A stretch of 52,877 nt of DNA, taken from a virus (Duplodnaviria > Caudoviricetes). The position numbers and the translations under genes are program-made. Location of the stretch: the IMG/VR virus record IMGVR_UViG_3300031720_000004, positions 1 through 52,877 of that record; one strand, 5' to 3'. Of the stretch, positions 1,729-37,452 are shown piece after piece. Numbering within the stretch: the first letter of the stretch is position 1; every line of letters begins with the position of its first letter. Under the pieces are notes generated by a model. That model searched no databases. It was given only the letters and a program-made list of their open reading frames with translations, and was not told where the DNA came from.

Positions 1729-3485
1729 AAGAAGCCTCCATCATTCCAGATTGCCGATCCCCAGCGGTTACTGCCGCGCTGCGGTGGGTTGGGGTAGCGG
1801 TCGAGTCCGTAGCGCGCGCTCGTCTGCGCGGTGACGCCCGCGTTGTAGATGGACTGGACCTGGCCGGTGGAAAGCGCGTACCCGAAGATGACGGCTTCGG
1901 TGATGGCTCCCTCCACCGTGGTGTCGTAGCCCGTCCAGCGTTCGTCCTCTCCGAGACGCATGGCTCCGGTGAAGTCGGCTGTGGAACTTGATGTGATGGT
2001 GGTTCCGGCCACACCGTTGATGTAGACCGTGCGGTTCGGCGAAGCCACGCCTGTGTAGACGACAGCGACGTGCGTCCAGGTGCCGTACGCGAAGGCTTGC
2101 GCGCCACCGTTGTTGTCGCCGTTGCCGTTGAGCCAGCCGGTTGCGAAGAAGTTCGTGCCGTTGTCCCCGGCTGTCAGTCCGACGTTCGGGAACGTCCCGA
2201 GGATGTTGTACAGCCGAGTCGTCGGAGCGAAGCCCGGCGCGAGCCGCGTGGCGATCTGCTCGTACGAACCTGTCAGGATGAGCGGGCGCGGATCGGGCAG
2301 GAGATAGACCCAGGCCATGAACGTCATGGCTCCCGTGTTCAGGTTTGCGCCGATGGAAGGAATCACGATGCGTCCGGGGAAGCGCGCGTCGAAGCTGATG
2401 GCCCGGTTCGTGTCTGCCACCAGCGGCCCGCGCGGGGCCGGAGGCCAGGGGATCAAGCTGCTTGCACCGGCCTCGCCGAACTGGTATCCGCTGCCGCCGC
2501 CAGCGCCGTCCTTGTTGCCACCACCGATGTCGTTCGCTACGATCGAACCGATCGGGTCGTTGCAGCGCCAGTAGCCGCCAGCGGATGGGTTGAGCGCCAG
2601 AGTGGTGACCTCTACACCGCTCGTCGCGTAGCTGCCCGCAGCCGCGCGCGCGGGCGCTGCCGTGCCCCATGCGTAGTGGTTCGCAACCTGCGTCGCCGTC
2701 AAGGCGACCGGATAGACCGCGAAAGCCGCGATGGTCGCGTTCCCGTTCAGTGAGGCCTGCGTCCCGCCGATACGCAACGTGGCTCCAGACACGTCCGCCG
2801 CGCGCGAGCTGGTGGCCGGAGTGCCCACCGAGACGCCGTTGACGTACAGCGTCATTGTCGTGCCGTCGTATGTGCCGACGACGTGGGACCAGTTCGATGT
2901 GTTCGGGCTGCCGCCTGTAACCGTGTCGTTGCCAGCGCTGGCGTCGCCACGCAGGAAGCCCCAGCCCACCGAGGACTGCCAGTACAACTGCGCGCCGTGG
3001 TTGACGGTCGCTTCCATGCCTCCGATGCGGCGGAAGGTCGTGTCTACCGTGGCAGGCTTGATCCAAGCCTCGATCGTGAACGCCTTGTTGGCGGATGGAT
3101 CGAAGGAACCCGTACCCGCGTCGCAGTACTGCGTCGAGCCGTTGAACAGACACGCGCTAAGCCCCGGCATGGACGGCATGTTCTGGCCGAAGGACGGCGA
3201 AGCTGTCGCTGCCGCGGGCCGCTTGGGGCCGTAGGGGTTGGAATCGAAGGCAGACGCGGAACCTGTTGGGTCGCCCATCAGCCAGAAGCCCGTAGGCCCG
3301 TCCTGGTCTGCCACCTCCCAGGGGTAGCTCGTCCAGTCAACGAAGGACGCGGACTCCTGGAACTTCAGTAGTTCATCACCGCCCAGGAACTGGTTGACGG
3401 GCTCGTCCGGGCTTGTGTCGATGAACACGCCGGAGTCCTGGTTCAGCTGCTGGAACACATCCTGCAGCGTGTAGATGCGCGTCAT
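1719..3485 (-). CDS. Tail protein with two LamG/concanavalin-A-like domains
   Basis: FTIEAWIKP...WSHVVGTYDG...LYVNGV and MTFMAWV...WTHVAVVY...VYINGV. Start placed at ATG 3485 (ATGA overlap with the upstream stop). Confidence 0.8.
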   Translation of the reverse strand: MTRIYTLQDVFQQLNQDSGVFIDTSPDEPVNQFLGGDELLKFQESASFVDWTSYPWEVADQDGPTGFWLMGDPTGSASAFDSNPYGPKRPAAATASPSFGQNMPSMPGLSACLFNGSTQYCDAGTGSFDPSANKAFTIEAWIKPATVDTTFRRIGGMEATVNHGAQLYWQSSVGWGFLRGDASAGNDTVTGGSPNTSNWSHVVGTYDGTTMTLYVNGVSVGTPATSSRAADVSGATLRIGGTQASLNGNATIAAFAVYPVALTATQVANHYAWGTAAPARAAAGSYATSGVEVTTLALNPSAGGYWRCNDPIGSIVANDIGGGNKDGAGGGSGYQFGEAGASSLIPWPPAPRGPLVADTNRAISFDARFPGRIVIPSIGANLNTGAMTFMAWVYLLPDPRPLILTGSYEQIATRLAPGFAPTTRLYNILGTFPNVGLTAGDNGTNFFATGWLNGNGDNNGGAQAFAYGTWTHVAVVYTGVASPNRTVYINGVAGTTITSSSTADFTGAMRLGEDERWTGYDTTVEGAITEAVIFGYALSTGQVQSIYNAGVTAQTSARYGLDRYPNPPQRGSNRWGSAIWNDGGFLWG

Positions 3486-17597: not shown

Positions 17598-17780
17598 GTA
17601 GCAGAGAACGAACTAACGGTGACGCAGCGTACGGGCGCGAAGCCCGAACAGATCGAGATTGAGGATGTCGGTGGCGGGGTGACTTCCGACGACAAGGAAG
17701 CCGCGCGCCGCGGGCTTACCCAACCGCCGTCGCGCTCGGATTCTTCATCAACTCCGCCTGAACCGAAGGAATCCGATTAA
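17598..17780 (+). CDS. Small acidic protein on the opposite strand, probable GTA start; candidate immunity partner
   Basis: GAGGG-ttca-GTA then (M)AENELTVTQRTGAKPEQIEIEDVGGGVTSDDKEAARRG...KESD*. Purine-rich, coding-like codons on + in a region otherwise coded on the minus strand. Confidence 0.55.
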   Translation, partial: VAENELTVTQRTGAKPEQIEIEDVGGGVTSDDKEAARRGLTQPPSRSDSSSTPPEPKESD

Positions 17781-20709
17781 GCCGGTCCACGATGACAGCC
17801 ATGTTGCTGTCGATCGTCGCCTTCGGCATACCCTGGTCGTTCCAAGCCTGACGCAGCATCTGCAGCGTGTCGTGACTCACCTGGCTGCGTAGGTCGCCCA
17901 GCGCCTTCGCCGCGTCCGCGTTGGTCATCCGCCCGAACACGTTCTTGGCCTGCTCGTTGCCGCTGACGCCGCTCTTGGGGTCTGCGACACCGCGCATCGT
18001 GAACGGCTCTGACCACGCGCCGCCGACCTTCCAGTCAGGCTTGGCGGAACCCTGCGCGCGGAACGCCATGCCCGCGCCCTGGTCGATGCGCGTCGTGCCG
18101 CCCGAAGGATGGACGGCAAGGTTGTCGTGCGCCAGACCCAGCGCATCGCGGTTGGAAAGCAGCGCATCCGTGGCCCAGAGCTTCTGAGCATCGCGCGCGG
18201 CCCCGCCGCTCAGCTGCGTGCCAGCGGCTTCGGCGGCTTGCGTCTGCCACTGGCCTGCGCTCAGGTTCTTCAGCCCGGCGATGTTCTGGCTGACCACGTA
18301 CGCCTGGCCGTTGGCCTTGTCCTGTGCGATGTACGTGGACGGAACGTCCTTGCCCGCCTGCGCCTTGCCCAGTATCTGGTACGCAGTGTTGGTGGCGACT
18401 TCGTTCTGCGCCCGTTCCATGGACATCGGCTTGGTGTAGACCAGCCCTTCCTTGGTGTTGTACCAGTCGCCGGGCTGCGAGCCGTGCGGCCCGTCAACCT
18501 TGACCGCTCCAGCGATGACGCCCTGCACGTCCTTGACGGCGGGGTTGTTGTAGGCCGGGTTGTTCGCGGGGCCACTGATCGGGATCTTCGTCTCGGAGAG
18601 CGAACCGGCCACGTCTGGCTGTGAAGCCTTGACCGCGCCAGTCGTTCCGAGGTAGCGCAGCCGGTAGTTGTTGCCCGACTTGCTCAGAACTTCGAACCGG
18701 CTCTCGCGCGGGAGCAGGAACTCCGCTTCGCCCTCGCCGTAGGAAGTCAGGCCCGTGCCCATCAGGAACAGACCGGGCGAACCCTTCGGGACTTCGATGG
18801 TCAGCGGCTTGCCGCCACCCGTGTCACCAGTCGGGTACAGGCTCGTGCTCACGTAGCCGTGGTCCACGAACTTGCCGCCTACTTCGCACTGGCCGATCTT
18901 CGCGAGGACGCTGGAGTCGACTGTGCGTCCGACGATGACGTTCTCCGTGGAGGACGCCTGGCCCAGCGCGGTGTCCATGTGTTCGATGCGCTGCTCGTCG
19001 GTCTTGCTGAACACGCCGCTGCGCAGCGAACCGTTGATGTGGCTGTACCAGCTGCCTGTGTATGCCTGAATGGCCTGCTTGGCGGTGCTGGTCATCTTGG
19101 CCTGCGACGCGCTTGAGGTCATGCGTACGCGCTGGCCTGCGCCGCTCGTGACGTTGAACTTCAGTTGCGTCTCGTACTTGATCTCGGCGGGCTTCGGCGA
19201 GTACTGCACCGGGGCGGGCTTGAGTGGATCGTTCGGCACGACGAGATTCGCGCCCGGCTTGCCTGCGCCAACCGTTGCTCCGACGACCGGCGTCAGAGAA
19301 CCCGTGGGCTTGTCGCTCATCAGCTCGGAGGCGACCGCGGGCGAGATGGACGGGCCGGTCAGAGGCTTGGCCCCGCCGCCGTACACCAGTCCTTGAGAGG
19401 CGAAGAACTGGCCCGCGGGCGAATCCGGCTTGATGCCGTGGTCCAGACCGGGCAGCTTCTCGCCCGTCTGGTAGGACTGCAGGAACGCGTGGAAGGAACC
19501 CGTGTGGCCGGGGAACTTCTCGTTCCAAGCCGCCTGTATCTGCATCGGCGTCGGGTTGACACCGGGGCCGACTTGCGGATGCGACGGCACCGCGGAGCCA
19601 ACTTGGTGCATCTGCCCGGCCTTGGGTGGCGGCTCAGCGGGAATCGCCGCGCCGGGCGGGATGACCTTCGTGCCCGTACGCGCGGTCCAGCCTTGCGCGT
19701 GGGCATGCTGGATGGCAGCAGTCCGTGTCGGGAACTTCTGCTGCACCACCATCTGGTTGGCGTCCTTATGCTGGATGCGCCACTTGCCGTCCGACCACTG
19801 CCGGATACGCACATGGTCACCGGCCTTGGGCGCGGGCACCTTGCCGCCGCCGCCAGTCTTACCGCCGCCGCTCCCAAACTCGCCCTGCGCGTTGCGCGGC
19901 TGGTCCTCGCTGTACTTCAGCGCCGCCGCAGTGCTGTGTCCGTTCATGCGCACGGGCGTCTGGTTCACCGCGGGGAAGTGCGTCAGCAGCTGGGGCCAGG
20001 ACTTGACGCGGATGACGTTCGCGTTCGTCTGGACATCCTGGTTCCAGGGCCGATCCAGCAAGTAGACCACCACGCCGGGCCGGGGCAAGTCCTCGGTGCG
20101 CTTGGGGTTGTCATCGAAGAACACCATCGGGTTGTCCGGCGATGCCGTTTCAGCCAGACGCTCCTTCTCGCCCTCGCCGATGCGGATGTCGTCGTACTGG
20201 ATGCCCTGCTCCGCCAGCCACTCCTTGCTGATCTGCAGCAACTCCGGCTCGCGGTCGCTCGCGATGGTGACGTTGTAGCCGCCGCTGCGCAGTGACCAGA
20301 GCGCCCAGATCGCGTCCTCATAGGGAGGCAGGTCGACCAGGAAGATGGGGTCGTGCTTGTGCTTCTCGTACCACTTGCGGATCTTCTTGTCCGGACACCA
20401 GTCCATGTTCCGCTCGGTCATGTCGTGGTAGCGGAAGTGTGTGTCGAACTTGCTGTTGATGGCGACGAGCGCCGGTAGGTCGCGCTCGGCCAGCGTTCCA
20501 TCGATATCACACACAACCCGCGGCTTCGAGAGTTCCGCAGCGAAAGCCCTGTAGGGGATGTCCGCGTCCAGCGCGATCTTGGCGTTCTGAAGAACTACGT
20601 CGGGCGGAATCCCCGCCGCAAGCGCCGCGTTGTACAGCTGCGTGACCGTGATGTGACGCGCATCGAGGTGTGGATCACGCGGCTTCCGGCAGCCGCAAGT
20701 AGCGCACAC
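17716..20709 (-). CDS. Multidomain head-associated effector: Cys knuckle, HAD 5'(3')-nucleotidase-like, VIP2-type ADP-ribosyltransferase, HipA/PI3K-like kinase
   Basis: CATCGC; DIDGTL...FDDNP...LDRPWN; QPRNAQGEFGSGG; YT..Y..IN..LR...VGR...YVSTS...EAEFLLPR; YTK...NEV...DALLSNRD...DN...RIDQG...FRAQG. Confidence 0.8.
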   Translation of the reverse strand: MCATCGCRKPRDPHLDARHITVTQLYNAALAAGIPPDVVLQNAKIALDADIPYRAFAAELSKPRVVCDIDGTLAERDLPALVAINSKFDTHFRYHDMTERNMDWCPDKKIRKWYEKHKHDPIFLVDLPPYEDAIWALWSLRSGGYNVTIASDREPELLQISKEWLAEQGIQYDDIRIGEGEKERLAETASPDNPMVFFDDNPKRTEDLPRPGVVVYLLDRPWNQDVQTNANVIRVKSWPQLLTHFPAVNQTPVRMNGHSTAAALKYSEDQPRNAQGEFGSGGGKTGGGGKVPAPKAGDHVRIRQWSDGKWRIQHKDANQMVVQQKFPTRTAAIQHAHAQGWTARTGTKVIPPGAAIPAEPPPKAGQMHQVGSAVPSHPQVGPGVNPTPMQIQAAWNEKFPGHTGSFHAFLQSYQTGEKLPGLDHGIKPDSPAGQFFASQGLVYGGGAKPLTGPSISPAVASELMSDKPTGSLTPVVGATVGAGKPGANLVVPNDPLKPAPVQYSPKPAEIKYETQLKFNVTSGAGQRVRMTSSASQAKMTSTAKQAIQAYTGSWYSHINGSLRSGVFSKTDEQRIEHMDTALGQASSTENVIVGRTVDSSVLAKIGQCEVGGKFVDHGYVSTSLYPTGDTGGGKPLTIEVPKGSPGLFLMGTGLTSYGEGEAEFLLPRESRFEVLSKSGNNYRLRYLGTTGAVKASQPDVAGSLSETKIPISGPANNPAYNNPAVKDVQGVIAGAVKVDGPHGSQPGDWYNTKEGLVYTKPMSMERAQNEVATNTAYQILGKAQAGKDVPSTYIAQDKANGQAYVVSQNIAGLKNLSAGQWQTQAAEAAGTQLSGGAARDAQKLWATDALLSNRDALGLAHDNLAVHPSGGTTRIDQGAGMAFRAQGSAKPDWKVGGAWSEPFTMRGVADPKSGVSGNEQAKNVFGRMTNADAAKALGDLRSQVSHDTLQMLRQAWNDQGMPKATIDSNMAVIVDRLNRIPSVQAELMKNPSATAVG

Positions 20710-27144: not shown

Positions 27145-28608
27145 CTATGCTGCTTCAAAGTCGGCCGCGGGATTGGCCACGCTGCTGTCATCAGCGGGGA
27201 CGTATTCGTACTCCAACACGCAACGGCAGTTCATCGCGCCCTCGCAGATCTCGCCGAACCCGCCGTCCCCAGGCAGTGGCGCTTCCTCCGCGGGCCACAT
27301 CTGCCCGTTCTTCTCTTCGCACAACGCACAGGGGTCTTCGCTCGTGACGACCCACGTGGCCATGATGCCACCGGATTCCGGGTCTGCGTCGGGCGGCAGC
27401 AGCGCGCTTATCGCGCCGTCCTGATAGCCCTCCTCGTAGGCCGGGATCGTGGTGGATGCGTACTGGTCCAGCCGGGAGGCAAGCTCCGCGCCCGCCAGCC
27501 CGGCAACCAAGTCCTGGACCATGCCCTGCAGGAATCCGTGCTGCTGCTCGACATCGCGGTTGATATCGTCCTGCACGTCGGGGTCCAGATCATCGAAGGA
27601 CAGCTCGTCAGGGTCGCCCTGCTTGACGACCGCCTTGATCTGCTTGCCCTGCTTGTGGCCCGCAACGTAGGCCGCGGCGTAGGCGTCACGCAGCGCTCGG
27701 CTGGCCTCGTCCACGAAGGACAGGTGGGAGTCGTGAGCATCGCGCGCCAGCGCGCCGAGACGCGAGGCTGTGCGTGCCATGATCCCTCGGAGCGCCTCCT
27801 CGCGCTGCGTGGCGCGTCGCGAGCTGCGGGCCGGGATGACAAACTTGCCCATCATGCGGCCCTTGGCGGCAGCAACCGCGGATGCCGGAGAAGAGTGGGG
27901 CAACTCTCGCGTGATCAGGACGTACTCTTTCTCCGGGAGCCACGAGATGGCGAACTTGGCGATGTCCTTGCCGTGACGCAAGTAGCGGCCCAGCTTCTCC
28001 AGCTCGGCGTACACATGCTTGTTCGCGGCGAAGCTGCGCAGCAGGTTCCAGTCCATGTCGGTCTGGAGTTCCTCGCGCAACGCGGGCATCCCCGGCAGAT
28101 CACCGGGCTTGAACCACGCTACAGCTTCGAATCTATCACCATCCGGATTCTCGCTGTTGTCACGATTGGCCAAGTCCACCATGCTCTCGCTGCGGATCAG
28201 CCAGACGTAGCCGCGGTACACGCCGTCCGTGCTGTCCCACTGGCCAGCGATGACGCCCGCGGGTAGCGCGAGTCCGACCTCTTCCTGCCACTCGCGCATG
28301 GCGCAGGAGAAGGCGTTCTCACCTGGCTCGCAATGCCCGCCCGGAAACTCCCACTGCCCCGGCGCTGGATCGTCCTCAACATCCGCGCGCTGAAGCAAGA
28401 GAGTGCGGCCCGTGTCCTGCGCCACCACCGCCAGTCCGCTGGCGATGAGAGTGCTGGGCGGGCGCATCGGCGGCATCGTGCGCCACTGTCCGGCCAAGTC
28501 GTACGGCACCAGCTGCATCCCGCCTCCGCCTATGGAGAAGTCCTTGAGCAGGTCGGCGGCGGCTTCGGCTACTTCGGCTGCGGCGTCGAGGATGTCCTCA
28601 ACTTCCAT
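27145..28608 (-). CDS. Nudix hydrolase fused to a MuF-like head morphogenesis protein
   Basis: Nudix box GGHCEPGENAFSCAMREWQEEVGL; C-terminal W...CALC...NCRC MuF-like Cys motif; directly after the portal gene. Start ATG 28608 inferred. Confidence 0.8.
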   Translation of the reverse strand: MEVEDILDAAAEVAEAAADLLKDFSIGGGGMQLVPYDLAGQWRTMPPMRPPSTLIASGLAVVAQDTGRTLLLQRADVEDDPAPGQWEFPGGHCEPGENAFSCAMREWQEEVGLALPAGVIAGQWDSTDGVYRGYVWLIRSESMVDLANRDNSENPDGDRFEAVAWFKPGDLPGMPALREELQTDMDWNLLRSFAANKHVYAELEKLGRYLRHGKDIAKFAISWLPEKEYVLITRELPHSSPASAVAAAKGRMMGKFVIPARSSRRATQREEALRGIMARTASRLGALARDAHDSHLSFVDEASRALRDAYAAAYVAGHKQGKQIKAVVKQGDPDELSFDDLDPDVQDDINRDVEQQHGFLQGMVQDLVAGLAGAELASRLDQYASTTIPAYEEGYQDGAISALLPPDADPESGGIMATWVVTSEDPCALCEEKNGQMWPAEEAPLPGDGGFGEICEGAMNCRCVLEYEYVPADDSSVANPAADFEAA

Positions 28609-31306
28609 TCGGCTTTCCGTCGGGCGCAGCCGGATGGTCGCGTCGCCATGCAGCGGATGAGCTGTTCTCGTGCTCGTCATCGTGAAGCCTGCGCAGAGCA
28701 GCGTCCGTCGGAGGCACGAAGTCGGCAGGCTTGACGCCCGCGGGCGGCTTCATGGCCGTGTCGTGCAGCTCGCTGTGGTGCGCGGTCAAGTGGTCGATCA
28801 AGCCCTGGCCTTCCATCCTCTCTTCCTTGGCGTGGGCGTGGCCACCGGGGTCGTTGCCGCCCTTGCTCAGCGCCAGCGCCGCTTCCATCAGCTTCCGACT
28901 GGCGTTCTGCAGGCGCAGAATCTTGGCGCTCGGCATGATGCTGCGGCCCGGAGGCAGATGGCCCTGCGACACGTCCGGCTTCTCCATCTGGTCGGCCTTG
29001 GCTTTCGGGTCCGCTTTCGGGTCGCTTTCGGGCTTGCCGCTCGAAGAGGAAGTTGAGTTGGCTTTCGGGTCGCTTTCGCCCTCTGGCGCATCAGGCTCCT
29101 GGACGGCGGACAGCGCGTCCTTCGTCGGGATGTGTCCAGCCTGCTGGTGTTCCTGCACCGTCATGCCCATCGGAACCGTGCCCTGCTGCATCGGCTCGCC
29201 CGGTGTGTGCAGAGGCACCTGCGGAATCGGCTTGCCATCCGCGCCCACGGGCTTGCCCTCGTGGTCTACTCCGGCTGCGCCTTCGGGCAGAGGCTTCCCA
29301 TCCGGCCCGTGCTGCGTGTCCTCGGGCTTGTATGGCTTGCCGTCCGGACCGATGGTCGGAGCCAGCGGCTTGCCGTCGGGAGTGGCGGGCTTGCCGTCCG
29401 ACGTCACCGGCTTGCCTGTGGTGGGGTGCATCGCAACCGGCTTGCCGTCGTGGCCGATGTTCGGCGCAGGAGCGTCGCCTGGCTTCGCAACCTGGCCTGG
29501 CACACCCTGCTGCAAGTGCGGCTGCTGCAGACCCGCGGGCGCGCCCGGCTTCGGCGGTCCACCGGCTCCAGGGAGTCCCTCAGGCCCGCCCTTGGGCGGC
29601 AGCGGCTTACCGTCTGGCCCGATCTGCGGCGGAGCGCCTGGGATGGCTGGAGGAGCCGGAGGCGCGCCGCCCTGCACATCGGTGATGGGAGTGCCGGGGT
29701 CCAGAGGCACAACGCCAGATCCGGTCGTGACGGTGGGAGATCCAGTCAGCGGCAGCGAGAACGGCTCGAAGCCCAGGTCCCCACGCACTTCGTCGCGCGT
29801 GATGACTCCGTCGTCGATGTAGATCTTGTGGGCAGTGGCGGCAGCGGCCTTGTCCTCGGCCTCCTCCATCCCTTCCCACGACCAGTCCATGTCGTCCTGG
29901 CCGAAGAGCTCCTGGTTGACGTAGTTGAACAGCGAGTCCTTGAGCTGGCCCGCCAGCGGCTTCTTGCGGTTCTCGTGCGCGATGTCCTTGCCCGCGGCTG
30001 CGTGCGCAGACCCGCCCATCCCCTGGCTCTTGCCTCCGGGCACCATGCCGATCTCTTCCGCCTGCACCGCGAAACACATCATGACCAGCTCGGCGATGAT
30101 CGTGTCGCTGCCGTCCGCCAGCTTGACTTCCTTCGTGTCTTCCTTGCTGGACCCGGCTGGCAGCACGACGATGCGGAACTTGTGCCCGATGTCTCCAGCC
30201 AGCGCGTTCAACGCGTCCTGCAACTGCTTGCGTTGCGCGGCTGATGTGACCTCGGGGCCGGGGATGATGTACGCGCCCGGCATGGAGCCTTCCTGGAAGT
30301 AGTCGAGGAAGTAGGCCTGGCGGCTCAGACCGATGGCCTGCGGCACCAGGGACATCTCGACTGGCGAGAACCCGTATGGCGTCCACACTCGCTTGGTCAG
30401 CGGCAAGTACATCAGCTCGCTGGTGGTGACGGGCTTGACCTCGTCGGACATATCCTCGGCGTCCTCTTCCGTCGCTACCATCGCCAGGTCTGTGCGTGGC
30501 ACACCCCAGATGTACTGCTGATACGCGGGGTTCGGCGGCTTGGGCTTGTCACCGCTCATCGCGTACAGCGGACGGATGGTCGTGCCGTCGATCAGCCTGA
30601 GCTTCTTGATGTCGGTGCCGAACAGCCCGGCCTTGCCACCGCGCGTGTGTTCGAAGCCGATGGACAGCGAGTCCGTCACGAACGTCTCTTCCAGCAGTGC
30701 GCCGACCCAAGAGCGGAACCCGGTGTAGTCGTTGTCCGGCTTGCGCCAGAACTCCAACAGCTGCTCCCGACGCTTCATCCAGTCTTCGCGCAACTCGGTG
30801 TCGTTGCGCATCTGCTTCTCGGTGGCCTTGGTGGGCACGATGTCCCAGTCCACTCCGACGATCTCGCGCTTCCGCACTTCGATGCAGGCTCGCACCACGC
30901 TGTAGCGTTCGGCGTACATCCGCATCGTCTGGAACGGCGCGACCTTGATGCCCTCGGCTCCTGGGACGCCCACAGGCAGGTTCCAGAAGATGGGGTACTG
31001 CAGACGGCGAGCGGTTGGTCGGTCGCTGCCCTCTGGCGGTACGTCGATGGGCTGAGGCATGATCGGCTCGGCCGGGCCGAAGGCACCCTGGATGAACTGC
31101 TGCACTTCGCGCGGGAGCGCGGCCTGCATGGGTGTGCCAGCGAGCCAGGACGCGTAGGGGCCGTTGGCGAACTCGCCGGAGTATGCGCCCAGAGGGTTCA
31201 GTTGGTACTGCTGAACGGACTCGTTGCTCGCCGCACCTGGGCGTGACGAACCTGCACCGCGGGCCTTCAGGCGGGCCGTGCGTACCAGCTCAGCTGTTGT
31301 GGGCAT
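28598..31306 (-). CDS. Portal protein with a long Pro/Gly-rich C-terminal extension
   Basis: VRACIE...IDGTTIRP...AYQQ...PYGFSPVE...YFQEGSMP...GVITRDEVRGDLGFEP portal motifs. Confidence 0.9.
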   Translation of the reverse strand: MPTTAELVRTARLKARGAGSSRPGAASNESVQQYQLNPLGAYSGEFANGPYASWLAGTPMQAALPREVQQFIQGAFGPAEPIMPQPIDVPPEGSDRPTARRLQYPIFWNLPVGVPGAEGIKVAPFQTMRMYAERYSVVRACIEVRKREIVGVDWDIVPTKATEKQMRNDTELREDWMKRREQLLEFWRKPDNDYTGFRSWVGALLEETFVTDSLSIGFEHTRGGKAGLFGTDIKKLRLIDGTTIRPLYAMSGDKPKPPNPAYQQYIWGVPRTDLAMVATEEDAEDMSDEVKPVTTSELMYLPLTKRVWTPYGFSPVEMSLVPQAIGLSRQAYFLDYFQEGSMPGAYIIPGPEVTSAAQRKQLQDALNALAGDIGHKFRIVVLPAGSSKEDTKEVKLADGSDTIIAELVMMCFAVQAEEIGMVPGGKSQGMGGSAHAAAGKDIAHENRKKPLAGQLKDSLFNYVNQELFGQDDMDWSWEGMEEAEDKAAAATAHKIYIDDGVITRDEVRGDLGFEPFSLPLTGSPTVTTGSGVVPLDPGTPITDVQGGAPPAPPAIPGAPPQIGPDGKPLPPKGGPEGLPGAGGPPKPGAPAGLQQPHLQQGVPGQVAKPGDAPAPNIGHDGKPVAMHPTTGKPVTSDGKPATPDGKPLAPTIGPDGKPYKPEDTQHGPDGKPLPEGAAGVDHEGKPVGADGKPIPQVPLHTPGEPMQQGTVPMGMTVQEHQQAGHIPTKDALSAVQEPDAPEGESDPKANSTSSSSGKPESDPKADPKAKADQMEKPDVSQGHLPPGRSIMPSAKILRLQNASRKLMEAALALSKGGNDPGGHAHAKEERMEGQGLIDHLTAHHSELHDTAMKPPAGVKPADFVPPTDAALRRLHDDEHENSSSAAWRRDHPAAPDGKPNGS
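29226..29624 (-). repeat. Nine (G)xDGKP-type coding repeats in the portal tail
   Basis: GPDGKP, GHDGKP, PTTGKP, TSDGKP, TPDGKP, GPDGKP, GPDGKP, DHEGKP, GADGKP. Confidence 0.85.
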
Positions 31307-32506: not shown

Positions 32507-32738
32507 TGATTGCTCTCCATCGCAGTACGAATTCCGCCCGGCGCTGTGCGTCCCACTCCTTGGGCAAGAACAGCGGTGGCCACTCTCCGGTGTTGGCGCG
32601 CACCAGCTCAGGCTCGGGAGCGCAGAGCCGTTCGATCTCAGGCTCAACGCGCCAGTGCGTGGCGGGCCGCGCGTAGTTGTCCTCGCGTGTGCGGCGGTGG
32701 AACTTCTCGATCATCCGCTCTTGCCGCACTCTACGCAC
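32490..32738 (-). CDS. Hypothetical protein
   Basis: 82-aa ORF between TerL and the small genes. Confidence 0.45.
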   Translation of the reverse strand: MRRVRQERMIEKFHRRTREDNYARPATHWRVEPEIERLCAPEPELVRANTGEWPPLFLPKEWDAQRRAEFVLRWRAINAAGV

Positions 32739-34441
32739 ATCGTCAGCCCGTGCTTGCAGTACTTCGTGGCCTTGGGGAGTGGCATGATCATCACGACGTC
32801 CGGGTCGTACCCGTTCTCATGCTCTTCCACTTCGCCCAGGATGGCAGCCGCCTCCTCGATCGTGTCCGCGTGTGTCGTGGTGTGGAACGTGGGCTGCGGG
32901 TACACGTCTGGCGCAGGCACTGAGCACTTCGGGCAGTGACGACCCGGCTCCCACATGAAGCCCTCTCCGCAGTTGGCGCAGCGCCAGATGCCCATTGCCC
33001 AGTCGTCCTGCGACGTAGCGCCGCGGCGCGAGAGCACGTTGAACGAACCGCTCAGGCAGTCGATCTGGTCGTCGTGTACGTTGGGGTCTGGGAACTGCTC
33101 GGCTTCGTTGAGGAAGTCGCTGATCCAGGGGCCGTAGACGAGCTTGATGTTGCGCGCGCCCGCGGCAGAACTGGCTGGATTAGCTCGGATCTCCTTCTTG
33201 CCAGTCGAAGGGAGAGCATGGAACGCGAAGCCATCAAGCAGCAGCCGGAAGTGTTCGGTTGCGAACTTGCCTGACGAGCCTGGCTCCTGCTCCATCCATA
33301 TCTCGAACCCCAAGTTGGTGTATCGGCTGGCGTCGCGGGCCGCGGTGTTCACAACCAGCTTCTCAGCTTCGTGTGGCTTCCATCGCCCGCGCACGATGTC
33401 CTCGATCCAGTACAGACCCTGCGCGTTGCGGGCCAGCATCATGCCGACTGTGTAGTCGGGGTCGGCCAGCGACAGAGTAGAGCCGGGCCGCTTCTTCGGT
33501 TCCTCTGTCGCAGCCATGTCCCACCAGCGGATGCGCTCACACTCGCGCGGAGCTTCGTCTACGATGTCGAACCATTCGCGCCGGAACTTGCGTCCTGGGG
33601 GTCGGGCAAACCAGTTGCCGTCCAAGAGCTGTTGTCGCGTGAACGGATCGAGCTTCATCAGCTGCCGCAGGTACGCGACCTCGTCCAGTGAGGGATTGTC
33701 GCGCAACTTGCTCTGGATGAAGGGTCGGGCGGGCTGCGGCCAGTCCGGGTCTGTTATCTGGTAGCACTCCGGGCAGTACTCCTGATCCCAGGGGTACGCA
33801 GTGCCGCAGAAGGAGCAGCCCTTGAGCTTGCCCTCTGTCATGAAGTGGCGCAGCACCCAGTCGTGCCCGAAGCCACCGGGGTTCGTGGCGCTCCTCATGC
33901 GGATGGGAGTGTCTGAACCAGCAAGACGACGGATTCGAGAGTGGAGGTACTTGTAGTCCTCCTCTCGGAACTGCGTCAGCTCGTCGAAGCCCACCATCTG
34001 GAACTCGGCGCTCTGGTAGCGATACTTGTCCTTCGCTGTCTCCAGATAGCCGAACGTGATGGTGCCGCCTTCCGGGAAGGTCCACGTGTGTGTGTTGCCA
34101 TCCCAGTGCGCTGCGGTGCCGCCCCACCACTCCTGCGAGCGGTTCATGATGGCTCCGGGCAGCGAGAGGTCTGCGAACGTCTGGCGCAGAAGCAGGGCCG
34201 CGTAGCCGGGCCGCTGCACGTACTGCGCAGCTGCCATCAGCAGTGCGTCAGACTTGCCTCCACCGGCTGCTCCGCCGAACAGCGCCTCCTCATGCGGGAG
34301 GGAGAGAAAGGCGGCTTGCTTTGGCCACGGCCAGTGCGGAATCCACGGGTTCTGCCGAACGTCGTGCAGCGTCTGCGAGACTCGCAGGATCGTTGCTGCC
34401 GAGGCCGGACTCGACGAGGAGCTTGGTAACGTCTGCGACAA
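32711..34441 (-). CDS. terL: Terminase large subunit
   Basis: Walker A GGAAGGGKS, Walker B MVGFDE, SATNPGG motif, nuclease WDMA...DYTVG...HDDQID. Confidence 0.95.
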   Translation of the reverse strand: MSQTLPSSSSSPASAATILRVSQTLHDVRQNPWIPHWPWPKQAAFLSLPHEEALFGGAAGGGKSDALLMAAAQYVQRPGYAALLLRQTFADLSLPGAIMNRSQEWWGGTAAHWDGNTHTWTFPEGGTITFGYLETAKDKYRYQSAEFQMVGFDELTQFREEDYKYLHSRIRRLAGSDTPIRMRSATNPGGFGHDWVLRHFMTEGKLKGCSFCGTAYPWDQEYCPECYQITDPDWPQPARPFIQSKLRDNPSLDEVAYLRQLMKLDPFTRQQLLDGNWFARPPGRKFRREWFDIVDEAPRECERIRWWDMAATEEPKKRPGSTLSLADPDYTVGMMLARNAQGLYWIEDIVRGRWKPHEAEKLVVNTAARDASRYTNLGFEIWMEQEPGSSGKFATEHFRLLLDGFAFHALPSTGKKEIRANPASSAAGARNIKLVYGPWISDFLNEAEQFPDPNVHDDQIDCLSGSFNVLSRRGATSQDDWAMGIWRCANCGEGFMWEPGRHCPKCSVPAPDVYPQPTFHTTTHADTIEEAAAILGEVEEHENGYDPDVVMIMPLPKATKYCKHGLTMCVECGKSG

Positions 34442-35826: not shown

Positions 35827-35839
35827 CTCACCACCTGAC

Positions 35840-36027
35840 CGAGCCAGCTGCTATGAGAGGACCGGCACTTTGCTGCTCTGACCCAGCGCGCACCGAAGGC
35901 GGCTGGCTCGCTCTGAGGGTGTGGGGAACCCGAGACTTGCGAGCGTTACGCTGGCTCCAGAGTCTCGCGCTCTGTCAGAGTTGCCAGTCGGGCGGGCCTA
36001 CAATGCGGACCCGGCGCTGTCGCTGGG
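35840..36027 (-). ncRNA. Candidate rod-like structured RNA
   Basis: Nested inverted repeats 35882-35888/36021-36027, 35911-35916/35975-35980, 35931-35937/35961-35967 and 35941-35944/35954-35957 in an intergenic gap. Confidence 0.5.
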
Positions 36028-36032
36028 AAATG

Positions 36033-36623
36033 CTACGCTGAAGCACCTCCCGCGGAAAGGATGGAGCCTGCGGCGGGATTCGAACCCTTGACGGAGGTAG
36101 TCGCGCGCCCGCCTCCATCTACATCCTGCCGACTAGCGGTCGGCTGCTCTGCCGTTGAGCTACGCAGGCTCGTCAGTCCGAGAGCTTCATCAACGATGTC
36201 GCCGGGCTGCCAGTCGTCACGGAAGAACTTCCAGTGCAACCAGCCGTCCTCGGCCCTGTCTGCGCCGCGATTGCGCGTGGCGCTGTTGAACTTGCTTGGC
36301 TGCCCCAGCTCGTTGCGGTACCAAGCCCCGCACCACAAGCCGGGCGAGTTCTGGCCGCGGATGTCCATGTCGCGGACCTCGAACGGCATACCCGCGGGCA
36401 TCCACATGCTGCGGGCCAACTCCCGACCCACGACCGCGCCGGGCTTCAGCCAGACGCCCAGGTCGCCCAGGCGATAGTGCTTGCCTACCACCAGCGTCGT
36501 GGTGAAGGAGCCGTTGCGCAGCGGCATCCAGATCTGCAGCAGATCCAGACGGTCGGCGTTCGGATGCGGAGAGATGCCCGTGACCTTGGCCACCACAGCG
36601 AGGTTGTATATCTGCTCGCTCAC
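36033..36623 (-). CDS. Stand-alone OB-fold tRNA-binding-like protein (resembles PheT B2/Trbp111 and the N-terminal domain of DRB0094-type RNA ligases)
   Basis: LAVVAKVTGISPHPNADRLDL...VVGKHYRLGDLGVW...IRGQNSPGL...GDIVDEALGL; no ligase catalytic domain follows. Confidence 0.7.
   Translation of the reverse strand: MSEQIYNLAVVAKVTGISPHPNADRLDLLQIWMPLRNGSFTTTLVVGKHYRLGDLGVWLKPGAVVGRELARSMWMPAGMPFEVRDMDIRGQNSPGLWCGAWYRNELGQPSKFNSATRNRGADRAEDGWLHWKFFRDDWQPGDIVDEALGLTSLRSSTAEQPTASRQDVDGGGRATTSVKGSNPAAGSILSAGGASA
36062..36169 (-). tRNA. tRNA-like element: tRNA-Thr-type body, atypical anticodon loop CCGCUAG, 33-nt insertion, encoded CCA
   Basis: Acceptor GCCUGCG/CGCAGGC plus U-CCA; D arm GCUC-AACGGCA-GAGC; anticodon stem GCCGA/UCGGC; T loop UUCGAAU. 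Confidence 0.8.
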
Positions 36624-36883
36624 ATCCGCTCCCACCAAGGCTTCTCGTCAGGCTTGGGCTGTCGGATGGCCGAGCGCCCAAGCCGGAGTTCCACCTTGTC
36701 GCTGTTGTCCTGGCCTTCCAGCACCAGAACGTCGTCCGCGCCCAACACGATGGGCTTCTGCAGCTGATCCTTGCCGTTGAGCAGGATGTTGTTGATCTTG
36801 ATGCGCGGCCTACGTCGGACGTACAGCAGGGTGATGGCCCAGCCGATGAAGCACGTCCAGCCCCACCAGAACCACAGGCTCAT
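36620..36883 (-). CDS. Small protein with an N-terminal TM helix
   Basis: MSLWFWWGWTCFIGWAITLLYVRRR; TGATG coupling. Confidence 0.55.
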   Translation of the reverse strand: MSLWFWWGWTCFIGWAITLLYVRRRPRIKINNILLNGKDQLQKPIVLGADDVLVLEGQDNSDKVELRLGRSAIRQPKPDEKPWWERM

Positions 36884-37452
36884 CAGTCGTGGCACCCATC
36901 CGCGCTATGCCAGGCCGTGCCCCAGTCGCGGTCGTGGAAGACCGGCTGGCCGAGTCGCAACGGTCGCCTGCAGCGAGCGCAGGGCTTGCCACGGAGTCGC
37001 CGGTCAGCCCTGGTAAGCAGCGGCGCGCGCGCCCGCCTGCCCGACATGTTGGTCGCTATGGCTCGGCAGGCCCGTACCTCTCGCAGCTCCTTGCTCAGCA
37101 AAGCCGCCCCGTGGGTGTCCTCCTGGGCCGAAAGAGCCTGGACCTCCACAGCCAACGCCTGCGGCTCCGGGTACTTGCCGTTGACCTTGGCGGGCTGGTA
37201 GCCGTCCACCATGAACCGCGCCGCCTGACGCTTGACGTGACGATTGAGTTTCGGGATGGCATGCGCCAAGTCGATTGTCTCGTCAATCACCTTCATCCAA
37301 TGGCCCGTCGCCAGAGTCTGAGAGATGCCGTTGAGGGAGCTACCCTCGATGGCGCTGTACTCTACGAACAGTCGCGCGCATGTCGCGCCAGCTTGTTCCG
37401 CGGAGTAGCCCACTGGTGCGCAAGCGTAAACCCTCTGCGTTGCGTTGGCAAG
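36883..37452 (-). CDS. Hypothetical protein (start uncertain)
   Basis: Open frame with C-terminal CARC...H..C. Possible near-cognate CTT start after GGAGG...TCA at 37452. Confidence 0.45.
   Translation of the reverse strand, partial: LANATQRVYACAPVGYSAEQAGATCARLFVEYSAIEGSSLNGISQTLATGHWMKVIDETIDLAHAIPKLNRHVKRQAARFMVDGYQPAKVNGKYPEPQALAVEVQALSAQEDTHGAALLSKELREVRACRAIATNMSGRRARAPLLTRADRRLRGKPCARCRRPLRLGQPVFHDRDWGTAWHSADGCHD

Follow-up and report, generated by a model that had tools for sequence, protein, structure and literature searches.

The 52,877-nt record IMGVR_UViG_3300031720_000004, from a virus of the Caudoviricetes (Duplodnaviria) and called the window below in its full length, carries a tRNA-like gene of 108 nt (36062-36169) nested in the 3' part of an open reading frame (ORF) for a 196-residue protein with a predicted OB fold (36033-36623). 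Both lie on the minus strand, to which all window coordinates given here refer. The reading favoured here, at about even chances, is that this element is a functional, non-canonical and probably non-decoding phage tRNA, co-inherited with its OB-fold partner. From its sequence, the element is a class-I tRNA body with two derived features: an arm that splits the T stem and an anticodon loop without U33. The arrangement is not a product of chance, as it recurs in relatives with covarying stems.

The acceptor stem is formed by 7 bp between its 5' strand (36163-36169) and its 3' strand (36066-36072); three of the seven pairs are changed on both sides between the two clades of relatives described below. 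U8 and A9 follow the acceptor, and the D arm (36146-36160) reads GCUC / AACGGCA / GAGC, with G18 G19 in its loop. The anticodon arm (36128-36144), a fast-changing part among relatives, has the stem GCCGA/UCGGC and the loop CCGCUAG at 36139-36133, giving C33 and a nominal GCU anticodon. The variable region AGGAU and the nucleotides G49 and U50 come next, ahead of a 33-nt insert (36088-36120), the extra arm, which lies between T-stem nucleotides 50 (36121) and 51 (36087). The remaining T arm, GGG / UUCGAAU / CCCGC (36073-36087), leads into the acceptor 3' strand, U73 (36065) and an encoded CCA (36064-36062). On reading of the sequence, the nucleotides of the tertiary core are all present: U8, A14, G18 G19, the pair A15-U48 (G15-C48 in the relative L006), the T loop UUCGAAU and CCA.

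The extra arm is an 8-bp hairpin, GAUGGAGG/CCUCCGUC, which on its own folds at -15.7 kcal/mol (z -3.0); none of 200 shuffled sequences folds as well. The minimum-free-energy structure of the 108 nt is a cloverleaf plus this hairpin, in which the T stem closes only GGG/CCC. Indeed, after the arm only these three pairs can form in the window. When G49 and U50 are used for pairing, the T stem becomes GUGGG/CCCGC, as the initial annotation had expected on removal of the insert, and G49 together with U50 or C50 completes this stem in each of the five distinct elements known.

The Rfam tRNA model (RF00005) recognizes 36065-36169(-) at 39.8 bits (E 6e-7; cut-off 29). It aligns end to end, with the extra nucleotides placed as an insertion and two T-stem mismatches marked, and it is the only Rfam match above its own cut-off in the 52.9-kb window. 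ARAGORN finds no tRNA gene in the intact sequence of the window or of the loci L003-L009. Once the insert is excised by script, the program calls a tRNA in all five elements (Ser-gct, Ser-gct, Lys-ctt, Asn-gtt and Arg-tct, the window being Ser-gct); this excision took out 32 nt instead of 33, so that one extra A remained and a 4-bp T stem was drawn. Compared with a canonical decoder, the loop has the usual 7 nt, U33 is absent and the 5-bp T stem is interrupted. The element as first annotated (a tRNA mimic with a 33-nt T-stem insert) is confirmed in its coordinates, cloverleaf, loop and CCA.

Several other assignments were tried and set aside. An acceptor/T-stem format of 8/4 or 9/3 is rejected, as U8 cannot pair with C65; the acceptor has 7 bp and the format is 7/5. 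A suppressor tRNA (YUA at 35-37) finds no 5-bp stem to close the loop in that register; a back-reading of the tail of one family member, P0028, would break the pattern. No transfer-messenger RNA (tmRNA) was found by ARAGORN in the window. The intron mode of the same program gave inconsistent calls (Gln, Leu, Ala; three of five elements) and was disregarded.

Relatives were sought through the OB-fold protein. A search of 5.8 billion proteins gave two relatives of the ORF, one of which (P0002) shares the tRNA-coded tail, and a metagenome scan with the protein gave seven loci, L003-L009. A complete element stands at the same place in L003, L004, L005, L006 and L008, L005 having the same sequence as L004 in this region; L007 stops inside the OB gene and is uninformative. 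This makes five distinct elements in two clades, one with the window, L003 and L004 and the other with L006 and L008. The Rfam tRNA scores are 43.5 bits for L003, 41.7 for L004 and L005 and 35.8 for L006, L008 remaining under the cut-off; thus, four of the five loci with a whole element pass, in addition to the window. The link between an OB-fold gene and a tRNA-like RNA, first noticed in the window, is in this way found again in metagenome loci with covarying stems, and it is kept across phages whose OB proteins are only 42-49% identical. Relative to L008 (4300-4700), L009 (170-490) has lost 81 nt in frame from the interior of the tRNA. What is left of it comprises the 5' strand of the acceptor, the beginning of the D arm and the acceptor 3' strand, and the ATGA overlap with the next gene is kept.

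A blastn search with 1.3 kb against 50,697 phage records gave no match. Scans of IMG/VR (with the protein, two alignments and two DNA patterns) came back to the L008 contig (L090, L092) and otherwise gave L002, with a distant OB homologue, and L091, with an odd tRNA-like RNA that is unrelated. In L002, a 147-kb viral contig, the OB homologue (33% identical over 69 residues; 3001-3186) is located ~540 nt downstream of an ordinary tRNA-Arg(ACG) (2386-2458). The tRNA-like RNA of the viral contig L091 (6281-6379, minus strand) has a sub-cut-off Rfam score of 25.5 bits. It shares the D arm, its anticodon loop is shortened, and an insert of ~32 nt stands on the same side ahead of the T arm; a terminator-like hairpin precedes it.

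The stems of the five elements covary. For the 21 cloverleaf pairs, 99% of the 105 cells are paired, compared with 30-51% after a shift of the partners by 1-3 columns. Five pairs, three in the acceptor and two in the anticodon stem, are changed on both sides, and none of 500 shuffles matches the covariation score. Conservation of the RNA body is even more pronounced next to its coding surroundings: between the window and L003, the OB proteins are 44.5% identical and third codon positions 42% (saturated), and the tRNA core is identical at 75 of 75 positions. For L003 and L004, with OB proteins that are 77% identical, the seven core differences are confined to positions 31-39, where the closing pair has switched from A-U to G-C and five positions of the loop have changed; the remaining 66 nt of the core and 29 of the 30 nt of the insert are identical. 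This contrast between core and flanks indicates a frozen body, with a loop and an arm that are free, or driven, to change. Judged on these alignments, the RNA shape is held by compensatory changes, and the body stays fixed while the flanking coding DNA is saturated.

Four versions of the anticodon loop occur, all of 7 nt: CCGCUAG, UACUUAA, UCGUUAA and CAUCUAA. A pyrimidine at 32, U36 A37 and a purine at 38 are invariant, and position 33 is C, A, C and A, never U. Without the insert, these loops correspond to the nominal anticodons Ser-GCU, Lys-CUU, Asn-GUU and Arg-UCU. It is unlikely, by analogy with other tRNAs, that four amino acids would be loaded on one body with one acceptor stem and U73, given the general identity rules of tRNAs. 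The lack of U33, together with the fast turnover of loop positions 32-35 and 38, argues against ordinary decoding and would fit a loop that serves as bait or target. The CCA is encoded in four of the five elements.

The extra arm always enters between T-stem positions 50 and 51, with lengths of 33, 30, 36 and 63 nt, and in each of the five elements it folds alone as a hairpin (z -3.0, -2.2, -1.0, -1.4 and -2.6). The arm of L006 is the L008 hairpin lengthened at its tip by 27 nt, which is the way structural RNA arms grow. A canonical-length tRNA without the arm was identified in a 382-nt soil contig; otherwise, the sequencing runs compared with the element gave only the probable source contig and short pieces of other tRNAs. 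Its first 19 positions match the element of the window, including the base before G1, and its last 26 positions match with two differences; between the matching parts there are 32 nt, compared with 64 in the window. It is parsed with the T stem GUGGG, U33 and the anticodon CCU (Arg), and its flanks are unlike those of the window. This canonical-length relative supports, at the sequence level, a derivation of the window's element from an ordinary class-I tRNA through T-stem insertion and loop changes. The description of the acceptor as tRNA-Thr-like is ambiguous: the closest canonical-length relative seen is this CCU (Arg) tRNA, and a loose acceptor pattern matched a UGU (Thr) tRNA in one metagenome-assembled genome.

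As first described, the OB-fold ORF has no stop before the element and reads through it, with the frame kept by the insert; in this frame the element takes up 36 codons at the end of the ORF. The tRNA begins two codons past a conserved LG[IV] motif, G1 is the second base of a Ser codon and the 33-nt insert is frame-neutral; 26 nt of final codons past the CCA (36036-36061) precede the stop. In all five elements, the frame of the OB ORF is the only stop-free one. The other two are closed by a TAG, at positions 8-10 or in the arm, or by a TAR at 36-38. Read-through alone is unremarkable, since any given frame is open in 4-7 of 20 ordinary tRNAs. The lengths of the elements (108, 105, 138 and 111 nt, and 30 nt for the L009 remnant) are all multiples of 3, that is, in five of five length classes, and the chance of four further lengths all being divisible by 3 is ~1 in 81. 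Furthermore, the stop of the OB ORF overlaps the ATG of the next gene (ATGA) in L004, L006, L008 and L009, four of the six loci. The lengths in multiples of 3 and these overlaps are the grounds on which the retention of the frame is attributed to real read-through and hand-over to the next gene. The frame is probably kept, as the comparison of loci suggests, as ribosomes traverse the element and pass on. The protein tail encoded by the tRNA looks like a by-product in the structural models.

The OB-domain-coding part covers residues 1-151 (36171-36623). An AlphaFold2 model from a 6-sequence alignment has a predicted local distance difference test score (pLDDT) of 77.5 and a predicted template-modelling score of 0.75. 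In the full-length model, built on 10 sequences, residues 5-150 are mostly above 90 pLDDT and the tail (157-196), at 33-37, is predicted to be disordered. The top Foldseek match is NgrRnl, the nick-sealing RNA ligase of Naegleria (E 4e-6, template-modelling score 0.54). It is followed, in this order, by PheRS-beta, a staphylococcal tRNA-binding protein (3bu2) and then YtpR, MetRS-C, Arc1p-C, EMAP II and Trbp111, over an E range of 4e-6 to 0.04. This agrees with the fold named at the outset, that of Trbp111/tRNA_bind proteins and of the N domain of Rnl5 (DRB0094-type) ligases. In Pfam, tRNA_bind (PF01588; 12.5 bits, E 0.16) and the PHA02142 OB domain (PF21189; 12.4 bits, E 0.22) both stay below the cut-off of 27. 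An HPNAD-type motif is located near the N-terminus. A Pfam scan found no nucleotidyltransferase domain (RNA_ligase, PF09414) in the 196-residue protein; this domain is present in the distant relatives L040 and L015. On the models, the phage protein is an OB-only relative of the Rnl5-ligase N domain and of tRNA_bind proteins.

No similarity to a PHROGs family was identified for the OB protein or for six neighbours. Its only known-phage match is the N-terminus of a Vibrio phage 'RNA ligase domain protein' (32%). A profile of six family members reaches 306 proteins at E <= 1e-3 among 1.84 billion representatives, and 27 representatives were fetched for reading of their tails, as protein and not DNA. 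Five of the 27 (P0007, P0008, P0013, P0017 and P0028) have tRNA-like tails in the same register, P0008 apparently without the arm. In P0021, a tRNA-like stretch is located immediately upstream of the OB domain instead of in a tail. In L008 (3825-4010) and L007 (2911-3096), the OB gene is immediately preceded by a gene for a small zinc-ribbon-like protein (CxxC...CxC), which is fused to the OB N-terminus in P0003 and P0004, both without a tRNA tail.

A scan of genome contigs retrieved only distant Rnl5-type ligase genes, 24-38% identical over ~90 residues, and reached genes of Nocardia and Nostoc. The two distant relatives that were checked, L040 and L015, are proteins with a PHA02142 OB and an RNA_ligase domain. 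ARAGORN, run on 60 of the 80 distant ligase loci (L070-L089 left out), found tRNAs at one, L040; cellular ligase genes are therefore not generally located beside tRNAs. In L040 (1272-4969), from the cyanobacterium Aliterella, an array of 20 tRNAs is followed within ~500 nt by the Rnl5-type ligase gene (PHA02142 OB and RNA_ligase).

Under the favoured reading, two fates would compete for one transcript, translation and release of the RNA. In the first, ribosomes would cross the element, adding a disordered tail to the OB protein, and be handed over to the next gene. In the second, the L-shaped RNA would fold and be released by RNase P and by trimming of its 3' end to the encoded CCA. The elbow, which is intact here, the acceptor stem and CCA are the parts that RNase P and OB domains of the tRNA-binding kind recognize. 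In a conflict over the tRNAs of the host, the released RNA would then most likely serve as a surrogate for a tRNA, as a sponge or as a decoy, not as an ordinary decoder; the anticodon loop would be the specificity part that keeps changing, as target or bait, and the OB protein would be the likely binding partner. The decoy detail, which is drawn by analogy, has much less than even odds. A stronger version is distinctly unlikely: a self-encoding ribonucleoprotein, in which one RNA would be both the message for the OB tail and the tRNA-shaped ligand of the same protein. The OB message would lose its stop on excision of the RNA by RNase P, protein and RNA would control each other's amounts, exchange of the loop would direct the particle at different nucleases of the host that attack tRNAs, or at different tRNA users, and the arm would be a 'phage' handle.

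Several observations weigh against a functional, co-inherited and non-decoding RNA. The five distinct sequences fall in only two clades, which leaves few covariation events, and most of the double changes separate the clades once. The loci were found through the OB protein, so that the linkage is partly built in, and a tRNA tail is missing from at least nine of the 27 family members fetched, which stop 1-4 residues past the LG[IV] motif. Among the sequencing runs searched, no RNA run was listed that contains this stretch. The identity of the cores could, on the sequences at hand, stem from recent exchange instead of constraint. L009, ~99% identical to L008 in its flanks, lacks 81 nt of the element's interior, which means that the RNA can be lost in nature. 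L091 has a second tRNA-like RNA with an extra arm, and no OB homologue was found in the 7.3 kb examined. Finally, the fixed U36 A37 and pyrimidine 32 would equally suit a reader of ANN codons that still decodes; a pyrimidine at 32 and U36 A37 R38 are the usual signature of such readers.

The nearest alternatives keep the RNA and change its role. A purely cis-acting role is unlikely: the element would be a processing signal, cut by RNase P and parting early from late messages, or an operator of the tail and the downstream gene, bound by the OB protein, and a cut would leave a non-stop OB message for tmRNA. This would suit its position, flanked by the replication module and by the genes for terminase and portal, all genes being on one strand and no promoter- or terminator-like site having been found nearby on the minus strand, as well as the read-through ORF, with its stop overlapping the next ATG in four of six loci and its frame kept in all five length classes. 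However, a processing signal needs no encoded CCA, no 7-nt loop with fixed U36 A37 and no fast-changing loop, the next ORF of the window is ~200 nt away and thus uncoupled, and L009 retains the coupling without the RNA fold, which makes coupling independent of the element. It is rather unlikely that the element is a working decoder, its arm tolerated like a class II variable arm, which serves ANN codons (Ser-AGY here; Lys, Asn and Arg in relatives) and overlaps the ORF as a result of genome compaction. A decoder would account for the ARAGORN calls in the five insert-free elements, the 7-nt loop with pyrimidine 32 and U36 A37 R38 throughout, CCA in four of five elements, the intact tertiary core and P0008, which by tail reading has no insert. 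Against it stand the absence of U33 from all four loop versions, the four identities that a near-identical body with the same U73 and acceptor would need (the L003 and L004 bodies are identical outside 31-39) and an arm that splits a stem normally stacked on the acceptor helix. Moreover, neither GlyRS nor ThrRS of E. coli charged an 'irregular' tRNA from soil that combines U73 and GCU with an extra loop (PMC5389517).

The two remaining alternatives have lower chances. A tRNA with an intron, from which 30-63 nt would be removed and the halves joined into a 75-nt tRNA, perhaps with help of the ligase-related OB protein, is very improbable. Removal of the insert does give a perfect 5-bp T stem in all five elements, the canonical-length relative of the soil contig shares acceptor, D stem and T arm, and RNA ligases have an N domain that is homologous to the OB domain. 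However, inspection of the folds, with no dedicated search for the motif, showed a simple hairpin flanked by 1-2 unpaired nt and no bulge-helix-bulge, self-splicing of group I or II would need a far longer insert, and the growth of the insert at its tip is that of a structural arm. The OB protein has no nucleotidyltransferase domain, and the spliced product would still be without U33. To our knowledge, no bacterial or phage pathway exists for such a T-stem intron, and a literature search turned up none. This part of the initial annotation is not supported; the rest of its interpretation is partly supported, by the predicted OB fold, by the conserved linkage, by selection at the level of the RNA and by loops without U33 that make a non-decoding role plausible. 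Least probable of all is a relic, a captured and decaying tRNA or the copy of an attachment site that now codes for a tolerated tail. The intact element is not called by ARAGORN, its loop is non-canonical, L009 has lost it outright, the tail is disordered and 4-7 of 20 ordinary tRNAs would be stop-free in a given frame. Against a relic stand the identity of 75 of 75 core positions next to 42% at neighbouring third codon positions, the compensatory stem changes, the intact tertiary nucleotides and the presence of both tRNA halves instead of the 3' part only. The relatives do not show a normal tRNA behind a stop codon with random decay in the window, the outcome that would have spoken for a simple pseudogene. 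No integrase was found among 31 window proteins scanned with Pfam (the record being 63% complete), and no matching host tRNA in the genomes searched: 0/401, 0/201, 0/5 and 0/301, a sum of 908 in samples of two phyla only, with the 201 overlapping the 301.

A comparison with known systems places the element apart from each of them. Various defences cut tRNAs in their anticodon arms or variable loops. The tRNA-Lys of phage T5 escapes the PARIS nuclease AriB through changes in its anticodon stem-loop (PMC11464382); further candidate cases of this kind are PMC11555353, PMC12445682 and PMC13096335. Like phage tRNAs of this type, the element is phage-borne and its differences are concentrated in the anticodon stem-loop, the region that changes here between close relatives. 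Those tRNAs are canonical, free-standing decoders with U33, whereas the element has an extra arm, lacks U33 and sits inside an ORF, and a link to defence would hold only by analogy.

Among published objects, the closest found are the 'irregular' tRNAs from soil (Mukai et al., 2017), which include allo-tRNAs with very diverse anticodons besides the U73/GCU tRNA mentioned above (PMC5389517). Their formats are 8/4 or 9/3, with the extra loop between the acceptor and D stems (PMC7609411). The likeness extends to the soil origin, an extra loop or arm, the combination of U73 and GCU (in the window), diverse anticodons on similar bodies and a doubtful use in translation. On the contrary, the element has a 7/5 format with the arm in the T stem, and its gene lies within an OB-fold ORF, whereas the soil tRNAs occur in tRNA polycistrons near toxin-antitoxin genes.

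Class II tRNAs (Leu, Ser, Tyr) also bear an extra hairpin on the variable-loop side, and the nominal anticodon of the window is that of Ser. However, the D arm of the element is class I, its arm starts two nucleotides into the T stem, and relatives with Lys, Asn and Arg anticodons have the same arm. At 30-63 nt, this arm is longer than class II variable arms, which reach ~20 nt. An assignment to class II was rejected, as the arm is not located between 44 and 48 with an intact 5-bp T stem after it.

The OB protein shares with tRNA_bind/Trbp111 proteins and with the N domain of Rnl5 ligases (NgrRnl, 5cot/6vt5; DraRnl; PF01588, PF21189) the predicted fold, the HPNAD-type motif and a profile that reaches PHA02142 plus RNA_ligase proteins. 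It differs from them in being under both Pfam cut-offs, in lacking the catalytic ligase domain and in its tRNA-encoded C-terminal tail. In organelle genomes, tRNAs serve as 'punctuation' of transcripts, tRNA and mRNA genes overlap, and t-elements occur. The element resembles these as a tRNA-shaped RNA in a polycistronic message that could direct RNase P cleavage and that overlaps a coding region, whereas in the phage an ORF runs in frame through the entire tRNA and is coupled to the gene that follows. In the literature searched, a frozen body with an abnormal fast-changing loop and a T-stem arm, read through by ribosomes, provided with an OB-type protein partner and missed by tRNA finders, was not found described together. 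Neither a phage tRNA read through by an ORF nor a link to an OB-fold gene was found there, and the supplementary figures of PMC5389517 may show a closer match. By these sequence comparisons, the element is a non-canonical phage tRNA with a distinctive nested and co-inherited architecture.

The record has a CheckV completeness of 63% and a G+C content of ~64%, and, by codon-position G+C over the whole window, the convincing genes are all on the minus strand. In transcriptional order, the genes for replication and recombination (Gp3-like, PD-(D/E)XK, AAA_25, SprT-like, DUF932 and DUF2303 proteins) come first, then small ORFs, the OB-fold ORF and its element, a stretch of ~200 nt that lacks a convincing ORF, membrane-like small ORFs and the terminase. 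The element is thus located between the replication module and the block of the terminase large subunit (32711-34441), the portal, a NUDIX protein and head and tail genes. The OB-fold ORF begins with a GTG at 36623, which overlaps the TGA of the upstream ORF, and ends with a TAG (36035-36033). This upstream ORF (36620-36895) encodes 91 residues with a hydrophobic N-terminus and has a homologue at the same place in L004. Synteny includes two upstream ORFs shared by L004 and the terminase a few genes downstream. The ~200 nt (35827-36032) between the OB stop and the next minus-strand ORF (35826-35578) gave no match to Rfam, and neither a promoter-like nor a terminator-like site was seen there on the minus strand. 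In the relatives, the next gene begins at or just past the OB stop, unlike in the window.

A few other genes of the window are worth recording. The best known-phage matches of the terminase large subunit (32711-34441) are those of the Methanothermobacter phages psiM100 and psiM2 (40%), followed by Gordonia phages (37.6%). A 997-residue protein of the structural module (17716-20709) has an ADP-ribosyltransferase exoenzyme domain (E 3e-20) and a weak NT5C-like match. The NUDIX domain is part of a 511-residue protein (27145-28680) encoded immediately after the portal gene.

Phage tRNAs act in conflicts with host defences that cut tRNAs, and the cases described are ordinary, free-standing tRNAs. 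If the RNA studied here is released and bound by the OB protein, the locus would offer a compact model of tRNA mimics that do not decode and of genes whose product is at once a message and a structured RNA. Standard tRNA finders miss the element; if the favoured reading is true, censuses of phage tRNAs would undercount genes of this kind.

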